The notes below the pieces were generated by a model. It was given only the letters and a program-made list of their open reading frames with translations. It had not been told where the DNA came from and did not search any database. Below are positions 9,927 through 16,581 of a DNA stretch of 42,470 bases, one piece after another; positions within the stretch are counted from its first letter, which is position 1; each line of letters opens with the position of its first letter. The DNA comes from a virus (lineage: Duplodnaviria; Heunggongvirae; Uroviricota; Caudoviricetes), in IMG/VR virus record IMGVR_UViG_2909288124_000001; one strand, 5' to 3'. The position numbers were made by a program, and so were the translations under genes.

Positions 9927-10807
9927 ACACTCCTCGTCAGTATTCTGGCGGCCATTGCACTTAATCCCGGAGACATGCGGTTGAATGCTGTGCCGACGGC
10001 GTTAAGCTGCCCGGAAACGGTATCCAGAGCACCTGCAATATTTCTTTTGTCCACACCACTCAGCGCAGACTGTGCCTGCTGTACATACGTGGCTGCTTCG
10101 CTGGCTGTTCTGGCCAGACTGATGGCATCGGGCATGGATTCAGAGAGTGCGTTAAACGCCGGAACACTTTTCCCCAGAGCCCCGGAGATATTACCCAGTC
10201 CGCTCATCAGCCCCGGCACACGGGTCAGTGCGACAACGGGGTTATCCTTCATTTTCTGTGTCACCCGAACGGCGCTGATAGTGGTCTGGAGTACAGACTG
10301 CGCCTGTTTCGCATAGTTGACGCCGTTGCGGATGAACTGCGCCACCCCTGAAGGTGAAGGTATGGCACCGGAGACCGCCCCGACACCCGGGAGCTTCGTG
10401 CGTATTGCCGGTGGTTGCAGAGGATTTTTCGGGTCACCGGTGTATTCCCGGAGAGACACGGTGGCACTGACAGCCAGCACGTTGCCGGTACTGTCAGTCT
10501 GCTCGCTGGTTGCAGTCACATCGGTGATCACGAACCAGCCGCGATAGTCACCGTTGCCGAAGACCAGCGCCAGTGCCTGATGGGCTTTCATGGCTGTTCG
10601 CAGTCTCGCCAGCTCCACATCGGGTACACAATAATGCTGATGGAAAACCAGAGTTATCTGGATTTCGTCCAGCCTGTCGCCGACGAACTGCAGGCCAGGC
10701 TTACCCCCGATGCGGGCATGCTCCGCATAATCGACGCCGAACGTGGCCTCGAAGCCGTCCCAGTAGGTAATCAGCTCAAACTCAATATCACCCAGTACGG
10801 CAAACAT
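9923..10807 (-). CDS. Tail protein, gpU-like / Mu N (DNA circulation)-like
   Basis: 294 aa ORF immediately downstream of the tape measure gene; assignment by position and N-terminal character. Confidence 0.5.
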   Translation of the reverse strand: MFAVLGDIEFELITYWDGFEATFGVDYAEHARIGGKPGLQFVGDRLDEIQITLVFHQHYCVPDVELARLRTAMKAHQALALVFGNGDYRGWFVITDVTATSEQTDSTGNVLAVSATVSLREYTGDPKNPLQPPAIRTKLPGVGAVSGAIPSPSGVAQFIRNGVNYAKQAQSVLQTTISAVRVTQKMKDNPVVALTRVPGLMSGLGNISGALGKSVPAFNALSESMPDAISLARTASEAATYVQQAQSALSGVDKRNIAGALDTVSGQLNAVGTAFNRMSPGLSAMAARILTRSV

Positions 10808-13758
10808 CAGCGGTACTCCTTACGTTGTTTCTGAGCCAGCAGACGCTCCAGCATTTTTTCCAGCTCATGCAGGCTCATATTCAGGGCGCCAGTCAGTCCG
10901 GCAGGCGCTGTGGTTTCCCTGCCATTGAGGAAAAACTGAGGATTAAAGCTGACCTGGATACCACCAGACGTTCCACCGCCGGTTGCAGCTGCACCACGGT
11001 CTGAATATCCGGCAGCCATGATTTCAGGCGAGGGGATACGGGGAACATCCGGTGTCATCTCATTTGCCAGACGTTGCCCTGGTAAAATCGATGCCCGGGT
11101 GGAGAGCGGGATAGCGGGCATGGAAGACAAACTATTGATTACGGCTCCGATCGCATTTTTAGCAGACGACATAAACCCGTTGATATCGGGCAACGGCATA
11201 CTGAAGCGAACACCTGAAGTGTTATCCCGTATTTCTGGCCCCTGAATGCTCACGGGCATTCTGGGGAGCAGTTCACTGGCCATTCGCTGCCCGGCCAGAG
11301 CTGCAAGCGGAGTGGTCCGCTGCAGGCCAATGGCGGCCCCCTGCGCGATATTGTCACCAAAGCCCATAAACACGCGGCTCGGCGAATGAATACCCAGCTT
11401 TTCACTGAACCAGCCACTGATGCTGTCACCCATTCCGGTTACACTGGATTTGAGCGACTCCCATTTGTTTTTGATACCGTTAATCAGACCGTCGACAAGA
11501 TGGCCACCGAAGTCGGTGAACTTTGCCGGCAGATCAACACCAAGATATTTCAGCGCAGCTGCAAAGGCTTTATAGAGCAGACCTGCCGGCGACCAGTTAA
11601 TCAGCAGCTTACCAGTTCCCGCGATACCGCCGTTAAAGGCTTCCTGAATGTCAGCCCAGCACTGTTTAAACCAGCTACTGATGCTGTCACCCATTCCGGT
11701 TACACTGGATTTGAGCGACCCCCATTTGTTTTTGATACCGTTAATCAGACCGTCGATAAGATGGCCACCGAAGTCGGTGAACTTTGCCGGCAGAGCAACG
11801 CCGAAATATTTCAGCGCAGCCGCAAAGGCTTTATAGAGCAGGCCTGCCGGCGACCAGTTAATCAGTAACTTACCAATTCCCACAATGCCGCCGTTAAAGG
11901 CTTCCTGAATGTCTGCCCAGCGCTGTTTAAACCAGCCACTGACTGCCCCCCAGTTGCGGTAGATAAGGTAAGCTGCTGCCGCGACAGCGGTGATAACGAG
12001 ACCGATGGGATTCATCATCAGCGCACGTCCAATCCAGAGAACAGCACGTCCGGCGAGCATAATTCCGCGAACCAGCCCCCCGGAGAGCACGCCACTCAGT
12101 GTTCTGGCTCCTCTGGCGACGGCGCTAAATCCGGTCACCAGCCAGCGGAGCTTACCGCCTTGCCCCAGTGCGAGCGACAGACGAAGCCAGTTGGCCCGAA
12201 GTAAAACAGCATTTTTCCAGACACTTACAAAGGGGGAAATAAGGAGATTCAGCCCCAGTTTGAGACCAACAGTCGCTATCTTAATCGCAAGGAGCGCACT
12301 GATGAGCTTAAAAGCCCCACTGACAAATTGCGGGTGAGTCGCTACCCAGTGTTTTGCCCCCTGAATGAGTGGAAGCAGTTCCTGAGTCAGAGAAATAAAA
12401 GATGGAGCTAATTGATCGCCCAGCGTAATTGCCAGATCGCGACTGCTGACCATAAGTGTTTTAGTGGCTTCAAGGGGAGATTTCAGCCGCTGATCATAAG
12501 CACTGGCAAGCAAATCGTTATCCGCAGCCCTGAGAGCACCGGCACGGATCTCTCGATATCTGTCCATGTTGGCCAGCATCGGGCGGATAAATGCCATGAC
12601 CTGCATATCCGCGAACATATCGCCCAGACCAAAGTTTTTCGCCAGAGCCTGAAGTGCCTCATCTCTTGCCGTATCATTCTTTATTTTCATGGCTGATTTG
12701 AAGCCGGCCAGCGCTTCGGGGCTTTTGGCATTGAGGTAACGTTCTATAACACTCAACATCCCTTCAATCGGAGAGATCCCCGCAGCTTTATAACTCGCAA
12801 TAGATCCCTGCAAATCAATACCCAGATCAGCAAACTGTTTCTGAGTATCGCGGGCAAAAATTTTGGTAAGAAAGTTTTTAAAATTATTGGCTGCTTCGTC
12901 GGTGGAACCTGCACCGATTTTTGCTATCTGGAGACTGGCCCCGATTTCAGCAACAGCCTCTTTTCCACTGGCAATACCCGCCATCATTGGGGCCAGGGAC
13001 TGCATCCACTTGACCTGATCCGGGATTTCAAATGACCCCTGGTCACCGGCATAAGCCATAATATTCTGAACGGCACCAAAATCTCTGGCCGCACCTTTCA
13101 GGGAGTTTTGCCAGACTGCGGCCACTTTTGCCCAGTCCTGAGCAGACGTGCGTGTTGCCGTTGCCGCGCGGGCAATATCCGGCATCAGAAAACCGATATC
13201 TGACACATTATCAATATTGTCGCTGATGAGTGAACCCACCGCCTCCTGCAGCTCATCCTGATACTGATTGTATTTAAGCGCCCAGCCTTTTATCTGTCCG
13301 GCAAGTCCATCCCGCGTTTTATTGTCATATTTTGCGGTGATCGACATATCAATCATTTTGTCCTGAAAAGACATGGACTGCTGAACGGCAGGGGAAACCG
13401 TATGATAAACAGTCTGTGCCATGCCATACGCTTCAATCCCCTGACCATACAGCGCCATGCGGTTAGCTTTCAGCGCATCACTGGTAGCGGATGCCGCTGA
13501 CAGACGGCGCTGCTGGCGCTCAATTTGCTCCATGGTGCGGCTTACCCGCAGCAGCTCGCTGTTGAGATACTGCATCCGGGAAGAACCCAGTTGACCATAA
13601 CGTTCTGTTGCACGGGTTAAAGCGTTCTGACGTTCCTGCAGGCGGCGTGAGGTATCGCTCAGGGAATCAAGCGCACGGCGGGTACCGCTCATTGCAGAAC
13701 GGAATGTGCTGCCAATCATCCCGCCGATAACAACGCCGACTGAAAACTGTCCAGACAT
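10807..13758 (-). CDS. Tail tape measure protein
   Basis: 983 aa; ATG at 13758 with GGAGGT RBS; follows frameshifted chaperone gene; hydrophobic and coiled-coil segments; carries an internal in-frame 261-bp tandem duplication. Confidence 0.85.
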   Translation of the reverse strand: MSGQFSVGVVIGGMIGSTFRSAMSGTRRALDSLSDTSRRLQERQNALTRATERYGQLGSSRMQYLNSELLRVSRTMEQIERQQRRLSAASATSDALKANRMALYGQGIEAYGMAQTVYHTVSPAVQQSMSFQDKMIDMSITAKYDNKTRDGLAGQIKGWALKYNQYQDELQEAVGSLISDNIDNVSDIGFLMPDIARAATATRTSAQDWAKVAAVWQNSLKGAARDFGAVQNIMAYAGDQGSFEIPDQVKWMQSLAPMMAGIASGKEAVAEIGASLQIAKIGAGSTDEAANNFKNFLTKIFARDTQKQFADLGIDLQGSIASYKAAGISPIEGMLSVIERYLNAKSPEALAGFKSAMKIKNDTARDEALQALAKNFGLGDMFADMQVMAFIRPMLANMDRYREIRAGALRAADNDLLASAYDQRLKSPLEATKTLMVSSRDLAITLGDQLAPSFISLTQELLPLIQGAKHWVATHPQFVSGAFKLISALLAIKIATVGLKLGLNLLISPFVSVWKNAVLLRANWLRLSLALGQGGKLRWLVTGFSAVARGARTLSGVLSGGLVRGIMLAGRAVLWIGRALMMNPIGLVITAVAAAAYLIYRNWGAVSGWFKQRWADIQEAFNGGIVGIGKLLINWSPAGLLYKAFAAALKYFGVALPAKFTDFGGHLIDGLINGIKNKWGSLKSSVTGMGDSISSWFKQCWADIQEAFNGGIAGTGKLLINWSPAGLLYKAFAAALKYLGVDLPAKFTDFGGHLVDGLINGIKNKWESLKSSVTGMGDSISGWFSEKLGIHSPSRVFMGFGDNIAQGAAIGLQRTTPLAALAGQRMASELLPRMPVSIQGPEIRDNTSGVRFSMPLPDINGFMSSAKNAIGAVINSLSSMPAIPLSTRASILPGQRLANEMTPDVPRIPSPEIMAAGYSDRGAAATGGGTSGGIQVSFNPQFFLNGRETTAPAGLTGALNMSLHELEKMLERLLAQKQRKEYR
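11410..11932. repeat. In-frame tandem duplication (2 x 261 bp) within the tape measure gene
   Basis: 11410..11670 and 11671..11931 near-identical; encodes duplicated 87-aa block WFKQ(R/C)WADIQEAFNGGI...GMGDSIS. Confidence 0.8.
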
Positions 13759-13833
13759 AGTGGTTAACCTCCGGGGAAGGTGAAAAGACGTGAGGGGATA
13801 ACGCAGAACAGCCGCTACTGGCGGCTGTCTGTA

Positions 13834-13930
13834 CTATGATTTGTCGCCGTACTCGCTTTTGATTTGCTCTTCAGCCTGCTCCAGCCACATCTCCAGATCG
13901 TCAGTATCGAGGGCATCAATCTCCCCCGGC
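13834..13930 (-). CDS. Frameshift extension of the tail assembly chaperone (E'/GT-like), reached by a +1 (equivalently -2) shift on a GGGGG run
   Basis: ORF 13834..14091 overlaps the chaperone 3' end in the +1 frame and ends 49 bp before the tape measure start; G5 run at 13923..13927 lies just before the zero-frame stop. Confidence 0.5.
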
Positions 13931-14251
13931 TGAAACCGGAACCATCTCGCCAGCAGCCCCTGCGCCTGCGTCAGCGCCCTGGTTGCTCTCACCCATCCCC
14001 GTGATGAGCTGAAATCGTTTCTGTAACTGCAGGTAATCAGCCAGATCCATATTGTCGAGATCTTCCGGGAGAAGACCAGTACTGCGGGCAATCAGCGGTT
14101 CGTCCCAGTCTGCCGGGTTTTTGCTGATTTTGCGCACCTGCTTCAGGTCTTTTACCGTCAGGCGTTTCAGTTCAACCAGCTCAATTCTGGTGCCTGCAGC
14201 AGTGGTGAAGGGATAAGACAATTTAAAAGTATCGGATGGGGTCTGTGACAT
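13916..14251 (-). CDS. Tail assembly chaperone (P2 gpE / lambda gpG analogue), zero-frame product
   Basis: 111 aa; ATG at 14251 with AGGAG RBS; sits between tail tube and tape measure genes; overlapped by a second ORF in another frame. Confidence 0.7.
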   Translation of the reverse strand: MSQTPSDTFKLSYPFTTAAGTRIELVELKRLTVKDLKQVRKISKNPADWDEPLIARSTGLLPEDLDNMDLADYLQLQKRFQLITGMGESNQGADAGAGAAGEMVPVSAGGD

Positions 14252-14348
14252 GATTGTGCTCCTGTGTAAGTTCAGGGCAGTATGTCGGGAGAAGCGCGTG
14301 ACGGATATTAAAGGAGATTAAGAAGAAGGGGCCGGAGCCCCTGTGATG

Positions 14349-14630
14349 TCAGCAAGTGCGAAACCCCTTGCAGTTACGCAGGAAAGCGATGAGAAGCGTC
14401 TTTCCCTCAGATTTGCCGGTGCCGGAGAACCAGTGGTCGGGAGGCTCCCATGCTTCAATCAAATCCGCCAGTTTGCGGGCCTTTGAACGTGTGCAGTCAA
14501 TCGGGTCATTGGTTTTACGGGTATTAAAAAGGGTTTCCACCCCCGGAATATCAAGGAGGGTAAACCACGTACCATTTGACATGCCCAGTGCCGCACATCG
14601 TCCTCCTTTATCCGTCAGTTCAACACTCAC
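14349..14630 (-). CDS. Hypothetical protein (possible moron between tail tube and chaperone genes)
   Basis: 93-aa ORF filling most of the 380-bp tube-chaperone interval; no recognisable family. Confidence 0.35.
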   Translation of the reverse strand: MSVELTDKGGRCAALGMSNGTWFTLLDIPGVETLFNTRKTNDPIDCTRSKARKLADLIEAWEPPDHWFSGTGKSEGKTLLIAFLRNCKGFRTC

Positions 14631-14632
14631 CG

Positions 14633-15154
14633 TCAGCCCCCGATATTGATACGGTAGTCAGTCAGTTGATCAACACCGCCGACCCGGAAGATGTTGGCCA
14701 GATAGTCCAGTTGCAGCAGCTCTTCACCATCCAGTACCTGTCTGATATACGTGCAGGTGAAGCTACTGGAGAACTCGGCGTTCTCGTGCTGTTTGAACGT
14801 CCCCAGCGGGTTCTTCTTGAACATAATCGTCAGGAAGGTGACCAGCGGGATTTCGTCAATCAGCCCCTGCGAGCTGTAGCGCTGGACGCTGGAACGACAC
14901 TGCAGTGCCAGCGACCTGTACGGGTTCGCGGCAGACAGCATCGCATCGCGGTAAAAGCTGTTCCATTTGATTTCGCCTTCCAGTTTGTCAAAACCAGCCG
15001 GGAGTTCCACCTTACCCACCATCCCCAGCGCCTTGTGTTCCTGCATAATCATGGAGACATCGGGGAGTTTAACTTCCTCAGCCCGTCCCAGCAGGTTAGT
15101 ACCATCCAGATAGATGTTGGCATTCGTGATGCGGTTTATCTCAATCTTTGACAT
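14633..15154 (-). CDS. Tail tube protein (P2 FII / Mu M-like)
   Basis: 173 aa ORF directly downstream of the sheath gene (ATGA start/stop overlap at 15154). Confidence 0.85.
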   Translation of the reverse strand: MSKIEINRITNANIYLDGTNLLGRAEEVKLPDVSMIMQEHKALGMVGKVELPAGFDKLEGEIKWNSFYRDAMLSAANPYRSLALQCRSSVQRYSSQGLIDEIPLVTFLTIMFKKNPLGTFKQHENAEFSSSFTCTYIRQVLDGEELLQLDYLANIFRVGGVDQLTDYRINIGG

Positions 15155-16581
15155 CAGTTGCCCCCTTTCAGGGTTAACAGGTATTCCGAGGTGATCTCAG
15201 TCTCAAACGTCAGTCGCTCCAGCGGCGGTGGTGGCGTATATTTGTAGCTCAGCAACAGGTGCCCGGCGGCCAGCTCCGTCTCCGGATTGCGGGCCGGATC
15301 AAACCAGCAACGGAAGCCCAGTACCGCACCATCACCAGTCATTTTGCGACCGTAGGCGTTGACCGACTCCGTCAGTGCATCAATCAGCGCCTGAGTAATC
15401 GGCATGTCGATGTACTGCTGGCTGAAATAACGAATGGACTCGTTGATCACATCACCGGTGCGGCGAACGTTCTCAAAGTTACGCATATGGGTGACCGTTG
15501 GCCATGCTGCCGTCCGGTTACCCCACAGACGAAGGCCGCTGCCGTAACTGCTGAATACCGTGGTGATCCCCTGTTCGTTAAGCAGGTTCACCTCACTCTG
15601 CGGGTCATCAATCATCGCGGACAGCTGGCGCTCCACGCCGGTGATCCCCAGAATCTCCTGATTGGAGGATGACCACCAGTAGCCCTTGTCCAGATCGACT
15701 CTGGCACGCAGACCTGCTGCACGCTGGCTGAGCGGCTCCAGACGCTCTGTGTTTGTCACCGGGTCATATACCTTCACATGCGGATAGCACAGACGGACGC
15801 GGTCGGAGCTGGTATTGAAGTTGATGGTGCCTTCCGGGCCACGACCTGCCAGAGCCTGTGCAAAGGTGGTACCGACAGGCGCATCAATGTAGGTTACCGC
15901 GCCCAGCTTCTCTGCCATGGCGATAAGCTCAACTGCGACACTCTTCTGGGTGCAGAACACCGGCGCAATCAGAATTTTGGCGAAATAGCCGTACAGGTTG
16001 AAGCTGTCGTTAAGCAGCTTCATGCCGGTTCGGTTTCCGGCGCTGTTCACCCCGCCGATGATGTCCGCCGCAGTCACCTTCGACGGGTCCGCGTACTCAT
16101 AGCTCACCTTCACGCTGCCACCGGCCTCAATAGCCTTGCCCAGGTTCGTGAGCACACCCGCCTGCGCATCAACACGGTAGTCCGTGTTCGCCGTGTGGGT
16201 GGTGCTGCCTTCACTGTTTTTCACCACCACATTAGCGACAACCGGATGCGCCAGTCTGGCCTGCCCTGTCGATTTGTCAAAGGTAACCACCTCATCCTCG
16301 ATCGCCGTTTTATGTTTCGCCGGGTCGAGGACGTTAATGACCAGAACGGTGCCTGCACCATGGTCATAAATCGCATCCAGCGCCTGCGGAATGGTAAAGC
16401 CGGTGAACTGGCTGCCAAATGCCGCTGCGTCTTTCTCAGACAGGCACTGTACCAGCGTATTGACATCCCCCATCGGGGCGGTACCAATCAGGCCAATAAC
16501 GGCAGATTTCACCGTTTTAACCGGGCGGGCACCGTTTTCCACCTCAATGGTTTCGGGACCATGCAGATAGTTAGCTGCCAT
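15154..16581 (-). CDS. Contractile tail sheath protein (P2 FI / Mu L-like)
   Basis: 475 aa; ATG at 16581 with GGAGGA RBS; conserved sheath-tube gene pair. Confidence 0.9.
   Translation of the reverse strand: MAANYLHGPETIEVENGARPVKTVKSAVIGLIGTAPMGDVNTLVQCLSEKDAAAFGSQFTGFTIPQALDAIYDHGAGTVLVINVLDPAKHKTAIEDEVVTFDKSTGQARLAHPVVANVVVKNSEGSTTHTANTDYRVDAQAGVLTNLGKAIEAGGSVKVSYEYADPSKVTAADIIGGVNSAGNRTGMKLLNDSFNLYGYFAKILIAPVFCTQKSVAVELIAMAEKLGAVTYIDAPVGTTFAQALAGRGPEGTINFNTSSDRVRLCYPHVKVYDPVTNTERLEPLSQRAAGLRARVDLDKGYWWSSSNQEILGITGVERQLSAMIDDPQSEVNLLNEQGITTVFSSYGSGLRLWGNRTAAWPTVTHMRNFENVRRTGDVINESIRYFSQQYIDMPITQALIDALTESVNAYGRKMTGDGAVLGFRCWFDPARNPETELAAGHLLLSYKYTPPPPLERLTFETEITSEYLLTLKGGN

Follow-up and report, generated by a model that had tools for sequence, protein, structure and literature searches.

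A conserved UUU_C tetranucleotide as the probable +1 frameshift site of the tail assembly chaperone pair in a BcepMu-like Escherichia coli prophage

Gene order and identity of the chaperone locus

The window analysed here is the whole 42,470-nucleotide stretch of IMG/VR record IMGVR_UViG_2909288124_000001. Its minus strand carries, in order, the genes for the tail sheath (15154-16581; Pfam Phage_sheath_1, E 2.2e-29) and the tail tube (14633-15154; Pfam Phage_tube, E 2.9e-53), a conserved 93-aa ORF (14349-14630; phrog_1239, function unknown, E 4.6e-48), a chaperone gene (13916..14251, stop included) encoding 111 aa and, directly downstream, the gene for a tape measure protein of 983 aa (10807..13758; Pfam PF10145, E 2e-20, with the same annotation in PhiKM and RefSeq). 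The chaperone gene, which is the zero frame throughout this paper, is preceded by an AGGAG Shine-Dalgarno sequence that can be read directly at 14259..14263, 7 nt 5' of its ATG. A second minus-strand ORF of 85 aa (13834..14091) overlaps the chaperone gene in its +1 frame, which equals -2; the coordinates and relative frame of this pair, as given in the initial annotation, were checked and found correct. The 93-aa ORF has a weak Pfam match to DUF7739, and relatives such as L005 have an additional 'Gp49 family' gene in the tube/chaperone interval. The Escherichia phage PhiKM, which NCBI classes with Bcepmuvirus, is 99.7% identical to the region, and matches to the region occur in 820 of 5426 complete E. 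coli genomes. The prophage is a Mu/P2 hybrid that combines a Mu-like head with a P2-like contractile tail.

The 111-aa protein matches Pfam PF10109 Phage_TAC_7 at an E-value of 5.5e-21 (74.8 bits against a cut-off of 25) as well as phrog_166 ('tail protein') in PHROGs at 2.7e-27, and the corresponding proteins of PhiKM and RefSeq E. coli are annotated as 'tail protein E' or 'phage tail assembly protein'. Together with the tube and tape measure genes on its flanks, between which a chaperone pair is expected, the Phage_TAC_7 match bears out the identity first proposed from the sequence alone: the protein is a tail assembly chaperone of the P2 gpE / Mu gp41 type.

Between the end of the +1-frame ORF (13834) and the ATG of the tape measure gene (13758) there is a spacer of 75 nt and not the 49 bp originally given. 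This spacer holds a stable minus-strand hairpin (13804..13831; ACAGCCGC-loop-GCGGCTGT; RNA fold -18.1 kcal/mol, z -4.1), the stem of which is conserved while the loop varies in KP12 and Phi06_2974B. It has no U tract; instead of acting as a terminator, it may serve in processing, in stability or in translational coupling. A terminator-like hairpin, AGGGGCTCCGGCCCCT then TCTTCTTAAT (14327-14342, minus strand), is located between the 93-aa ORF and the chaperone gene, and attenuation at this hairpin might limit transcription of the chaperone and tape measure genes. Within the tape measure gene, window positions 11408-11942 contain a 261-bp tandem duplication (2.0 copies, 93% identical) that repeats an 87-aa segment; the protein has 983 aa in the window compared with 821 aa (2466 nt) in KP12 and GON1437, so a longer tail is predicted. 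The PhiKM sequence has a sequencing gap at this duplication.

The extension domain and its frame among relatives

Frameshifting in tail assembly chaperone genes is conserved, whereas +1 cases are rare and their sites are hard to find. Loci related to the one in the window were gathered from one-genome-per-species contigs, IMG/VR and metagenomes; 191 of them, from Enterobacterales and Betaproteobacteria, had a chaperone motif and an extension motif that could both be scored, and 110 unique sequences form the set behind all counts of sites, start codons and G runs given below. The extension peptide LLARWFRFQPxEIDAL... lies in the chaperone's +1 frame in 191/191 loci, across chaperone identities from 99% down to about 39%, and the non-canonical +1/-2 frame read initially from a single sequence is thus a property of the whole set. 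E' is likewise in the +1 frame in BcepMu itself, in Ralstonia phage YO107_2, in Pseudomonas phage Komp_PAO1_1 and in 23 distinct BcepMu/Pseudomonas-group loci, that is, in every locus of that group where E' could be located. Because the +1-frame ORF is present in all 191 loci and in these 23, the overlap is far beyond chance; it is a conserved overlapping ORF in another frame, with neither a conserved start nor a conserved ribosome-binding site. The -1 frame, which is also open in the window, was rejected as the extension, its peptide being unconserved and the frame closing early in relatives. A canonical -1 heptanucleotide of the form X_XXY_YYZ does not account for the overlap, where the extension is +1, and the -1 heptamers G_GGA_AAG and T_TTT_TTG are confined to Pasteurellaceae and P2 relatives.

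The E'-like domain (LLARWFRFQPGEIDAL...GDKS; 13837..13956, minus strand) was delimited using Pfam, BLASTP and +1-synonymous substitutions, and it is the counterpart of P2 gpE' and the lambda T domain. Against Pfam PF06528 Phage_P2_GpE it scores 16.2-18.4 bits over profile positions 4-36 of 37, so that even the best score misses the gathering threshold of 23 bits, and an NCBIfam search with E, E' and the E+E' fusion returned 0 matches. Fusion residues 87-138 are covered by phrog_8286 (function unknown; E about 3e-33 to 3e-34). With BLASTP, residues 100-126 of the fusion align with residues 107-133 of P2 E+E' (E 0.029), pairing LARWFRFQPGEIDALDTDDLEMWLEQA with P2 VAVIFHWPPSELYPMSLTELITWREKA, and the residues of the LLARWF region align to VAVIFHWPPSE of P2 E'. 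Two relatives with a -1-frame extension, Volucribacter L038 and Pasteurella phage AFS-2018a, carry the E' motif as LAWWFGWSPTEL and VAWWFGWNVSEI, respectively, in both cases after canonical G_GGA_AAG heptamers. Owing to the BLASTP match with P2 E' and the motif shared with these -1 relatives, the homology of E' to P2 GpE is supported despite the sub-threshold Pfam score. We consider it likely that the locus is a gpE/gpE+E' (lambda G/GT-type) tail assembly chaperone pair in a BcepMu-like E. coli prophage.

Bounds on the shift position

Two limits confine the shift: it has to follow the last +1 stop, and it has to precede the zero-frame stop as well as the first conserved residues of the +1 frame. 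On the 5' side, +1-frame stops are found 2-4 codons upstream of the conserved phenylalanine codon (codon 80 of the chaperone gene in the window) in betaproteobacterial loci, L011, YO107_2 and Komp_PAO1_1. On the 3' side, the zero-frame stop of most relatives is 17 nt past the first LLARWF codon and still 5' of the G run discussed below; BcepMu has its stop 4 nt ahead of that codon, and L058, a window-type sequence with a nonsense change, has it 25 nt ahead. The zero-frame stop comes six codons past the Phe codon in a BcepMu-like clade of five loci (L212-L214, L217 and L218), and the two frames overlap there by just 29 nt, which in the +1 frame read GCG ACT CCT TTC GCA GCA TGG TGG ACA AC. TTT_C is the sole homopolymer-codon site within this overlap. 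In the same five loci, the stretch of the +1 frame that precedes the conserved ALRPLDE lacks ATG, GTG and TTG alike, so recoding is required.

A run of five Gs near the zero-frame end had been put forward as the slip site. The run is present as described (...GCC GGG GGA GAT TGA, with the Gs at 13927-13923 and the stop at 13918-13916, minus strand), but the comparison with relatives assigns it to the +1 codons CCG GGG GAG (Pro-Gly-Glu; 13923..13927), which are replaced by CCG AGT GAG, CCT GGG GAG and others elsewhere. Of the 110 unique relatives, 44 lack the run, 41 have it 3' of the zero-frame stop, and just 25 have a zero frame that extends to it. A zero-frame TAG stands five codons 5' of the run in most relatives, KP12 and Phi06_2974B among them. 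The LLARWF codons 5' of the run showed seven variants, 7/7 synonymous in the +1 frame and 0/7 in the zero frame, and LLARWFRFQP is under +1-frame purifying selection. This peptide is homologous to the P2 E' core and must therefore be read in the +1 frame, which places the shift upstream of the run; a slip at the run itself would cost the 37-residue GpE domain about ten residues. The Mu-type -2 arrangement, in which a conserved G run precedes all extension-frame coding, is accordingly not what is found in these sequences, and the G run is not the shift site.

A conserved UUU_C site

Codons 79-80 of the chaperone gene read CGA_UUU_C (14011..14017, minus strand), about 90 nt upstream of the G run, and we propose this heptanucleotide as the +1 shift site on the grounds of conservation, codon anomaly and frame bounds. 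At positions 14017-14011 a UUU in the zero frame precedes a C, and the +1 frame is open from there on, as in UUU_Y sites (UUU, then C or U); the re-pairing of tRNA-Phe from UUU to UUC is perfect. UUU_Y is prone to +1 shifting in bacteria; cited cases are YopN-TyeA of Yersinia and, outside bacteria, the influenza PA-X cassette UCC_UUU_CGU. For this gene pair, shifts of -1, -2 or +1 occur among tailed phages (PMC5009743). TTT is conserved in 110/110 unique relatives, as is the C that follows it, and CGA precedes it in 108/110. The background in twelve structural genes of the prophage is quite different, with 80 TTT and 78 TTC codons for Phe and only 9 CGA among 286 Arg codons (3%). TTT_C is also the only homopolymer-codon site shared by every permitted interval of the 110 sequences, and in the BcepMu group the site reads TCC/ACC/GCC/TCT_TTT_CGC or GTG_TTT_CGG. 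Most likely, the shift is a +1 slip at CGA_UUU_C (14017-14011) and not a Mu-like -2 slip on the G run. Two related loci are the sole exceptions to UUU_C among the +1-type relatives and read GTG_TTG_CGG, namely L233 and L234 (IMG/VR 3300038808 and 3300038809; about locus position 919). Their +1-frame E' is intact, and a TCC_AAA_ACC five codons upstream could be an alternative +1 site in them.

No conserved 3' RNA structure was detected after UUU_C by RNAalifold on 18 diverse sequences (-1.2 kcal/mol, no covariation), and inspection of the sequences 5' of the site revealed no general Shine-Dalgarno-like stimulator, an SD-like AAGGAG 3 nt 5' of the site being restricted to some betaproteobacterial loci. 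The zero-frame codon after the site (CAG, CTG or CGC) is not rare. As no stimulator was found, the efficiency would have to rest on the intrinsic slipperiness of UUU_C. Two other routes were considered and rejected: transcriptional slippage, as judged from reading the sequence, in which there is only TTT and no long A or T run, and a prfB-like model in which SD-like GAGGTG is followed by GTT_TAG in KP12-type sequences, which would leave LLARWF untranslated though it is homologous to P2 E'. The literature covered describes no +1 site for this family; Xu et al. 2004 and Summer et al. 2004 fall outside that coverage and might contain an earlier mention.

Over the first roughly 36 nt 3' of the site, 45 variants were synonymous 11 times in the zero frame, 14 times in the +1 frame and 11 times in the -1 frame, with no clear frame preference. 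This pattern fits a flexible linker read in both frames and does not locate the shift; judged from the enterobacterial clade alone, the shift might conceivably sit somewhat further downstream in the linker. The invariant CGA could be maintained through dual coding, with Arg specified in the zero frame and Asp in +1, instead of through a part in shifting. More speculatively, this rare codon in the E-site position, possibly with weak I·A pairing, might have a role in shifting.

Proposed mechanism and fusion product

In the proposed mechanism, most ribosomes would read through the zero frame and release the 111-aa chaperone, while a presumably small minority would shift to +1 at codon 80, where peptidyl-tRNA-Phe on UUU (14014-14012) would re-pair on UUC (14013-14011). 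The shifted ribosomes would translate 58 further +1 codons up to the TAG at 13836-13834. The post-shift segment, delimited from the ORF list and frame conservation, would thus comprise TTC, the 58 codons (SSSRGWVRATRALTQAQGLLARWFRFQPGEIDALDTDDLEMWLEQAEEQIKSEYGDKS) and TAG (13834..14013, minus strand). Zero-frame codons 1-80 joined to this +1 segment would yield a 138-aa E+E' fusion in which about 20 linker residues connect TAC_7 to the E'-like domain (LLARWFRFQPGEIDAL...), with the predicted junction ...DYLQLQKRF|SSSRGWVRATRALTQAQGLLARWFRFQPGEIDAL...GDKS. In this fusion residue 82 is the last of TAC_7 and residue 100 the first of GpE, compared with 85 and 104-107 in P2 E+E' (142 aa), so a shift at F80 would keep the P2 domain layout. 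A longer fused product had already been suggested for the locus and is indeed expected from homology with P2 E/E+E' and Mu gp41. Lambda gpG/gpGT and P2 E/E+E' suggest by analogy that both products would coat the tape measure protein and that the rare fusion would recruit the tube protein via E'. On the sequence comparisons described above, we regard the complete model, a presumably ribosomal +1 slip at UUU_C that gives an E+E' fusion, as probably correct.

Alternative explanations

The fusion could also be generated at other positions of the overlap. A slip on GGGGG (13927-13923), either +1 by tRNA-Gly on GGG_G or -2 as in Mu, just 5' of TGA, would give a product reading ...VPVSAG(G)EIDALDTDD..., with the junction ...VPVSAG(G)EIDALDTDDLEMWLEQAEEQIK. 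GCC_GGG_GGA in the window permits cognate +1 re-pairing, GGA and the nearby TGA could slow decoding, and a verified -2 shift on CGG_GGG_CGA is known from Mu; yet the distribution of the run in relatives, its reading as Pro-Gly-Glu, a phase unlike that of Mu and a product without LLARWFRFQP, which is +1-selected and homologous to the P2 E' core, make this very unlikely. The database does contain variants brought in frame by a one-G deletion in the run (P0003-P0005, P0007; L019, L114), but these deletions fall at a homopolymer position, mostly in automated assemblies, alongside junctions at other homopolymers. The in-frame 138-aa database proteins P0001-P0011 were discarded as evidence on the site: their junctions are scattered over several homopolymers, and they look like indel variants or assembly errors that are uninformative on the translational site. 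One-base indels that fuse E and E' occur in L019 (Erwinia tracheiphila), L114, L026 (Apirhabdus apintestini) and P0001-P0011, most commonly at the G5 run and otherwise at an A run, at CAGGGC or upstream of the Phe codon; the genomes concerned may be degraded prophages or carry homopolymer sequencing errors. A +1 (or -2) shift at another, lineage-specific linker site between F80 and LLARWF, for which GCA_GGG_GCT (13963-13955) and CAG_GGC (13981-13976) are candidates in the window, is unlikely. GGG_G occurs in 74/110 unique sequences, and the weak frame-specific selection in the first 36 nt past UUU_C leaves room for such a site; however, none is universal, some of the GGG_G sites fall within +1-selected sequence, the +1 peptide QAQG 5' of LLARWF already shows +1-synonymous changes, and the 29-nt overlap of the L212 clade leaves UUU_C alone. 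A +1 slip on GCA_GGG_G (13957-13960) was specifically rejected, as L006-type sequences read GGG_C there, a change that is synonymous in +1, and the QAQG upstream behaves as +1 coding.

Recoding would be unnecessary if E' had a start codon of its own and were made as a separate small protein, as PGAP implies with the name 'GpE family phage tail protein'. RefSeq has stand-alone GpE CDSs of 45 aa or 42 aa in L005 and L007, and a +1-frame ATG is located upstream of LLARWF in 72/110 unique sequences. The position of this ATG is variable, though, and a Shine-Dalgarno-like sequence accompanies it in only 7/110; 38/110 have no ATG, including the window (ACG where KP12-type sequences have ATG), 11/110 have no start codon of any kind, and in the L212 clade there is none 5' of the conserved +1 residues. 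The homologous domain of P2, furthermore, is made only as a frameshift fusion (AF063097 annotation; PMC3091744). An independently translated E' is therefore most improbable, and the +1 slip at UUU_C remains our preferred explanation.

Implications

The comparison narrows the +1 site to one tetranucleotide, and this has practical consequences for annotation. PGAP currently drops E' or makes it a separate gene, and the BcepMu record pairs the wrong ORFs; with the UUU_C model, annotation pipelines would be able to join the E/E' CDSs correctly. A natural and apparently stimulator-free UUU_C with an invariant rare CGA would also suit as a bacterial model of E-site effects on +1 shifting. We tentatively extend the model, in a broader reading that is itself rather doubtful, to the whole clade of transposable BcepMu-like phages from E. 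coli to Burkholderia and Pseudomonas: all members would fuse E and E' via stimulator-free UUU_C, with the invariant rare 5' codon, which is NCC for the BcepMu group and CGA for phages of enterobacteria and betaproteobacteria, setting the rate from the E site, and a -1/+1 switch would have occurred with respect to T_TTT_TTG of P2 at essentially the same Phe codon.

Comparison with known systems

The closest parallels are found in gpE/gpE+E' of P2. There, too, a Phage_TAC_7 protein with a GpE-like extension is encoded between the tube gene FII and the tape measure gene T, and the chaperone domain is followed by a linker of about 20 residues and then by the E' domain. Similarly, P2 shifts on a Phe UUU where TAC_7 has its C-terminal edge, as would the present gene (profile position about 77 and about 74, respectively). 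The P2 frameshift operates without a downstream hairpin (PMC3091744), and none was detected after the present site. The two differ in the shift itself, which is -1 at the heptamer T_TTT_TTG in P2 and would be +1 at the tetranucleotide UUU_C here, and in the E' of the window scoring below the Pfam GpE gathering score (18.4 vs 23 bits). Mu gp41/gp41-42 belongs to the same Pfam chaperone family ('E, or 41 or 14') and has its extension in the same +1/-2 frame, and the prophage has Mu-like head genes. The initial annotation correctly named Mu as a -2 shifter (GenBank AF083977 annotation; PMC5009743). Its verified shift, however, uses a G5 run in CGG_GGG_CGA with a rare CGA in the A site, whereas the G5 run here is unconserved, in another phase and context and downstream of sequence already read in +1; on inspection, the Mu extension peptide has no evident similarity to E'.

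In comparison, the UUU_Y sites of argI error frameshifting, YopN-TyeA and PA-X share with the present site the zero-frame UUU followed by a pyrimidine, the re-pairing of tRNA-Phe on UUC and the expectation of a low-level fusion product, and UCC_UUU_CGU of influenza PA-X can be set against UCC_UUU_CGC of the BcepMu group. They belong to unrelated genes; the enterobacterial clade has CGA as its 5' codon, and neither a slow A-site codon nor another stimulator is apparent at the present site. BcepMu itself (L039, AY539836, 6603-7364) has the same arrangement as the window: gp41 is the chaperone, and gp42 carries E' in the +1 frame of gp41. The BcepMu record instead annotates gp42/gp43 as a lambda G/T-like slippage pair, but gp43 is probably a spurious Arg-rich ORF overlapping the start of the tape measure gene, and the comparison indicates that the true pair consists of gp41 and the gp42 frame, which would be joined at TCC_TTT_CGC.
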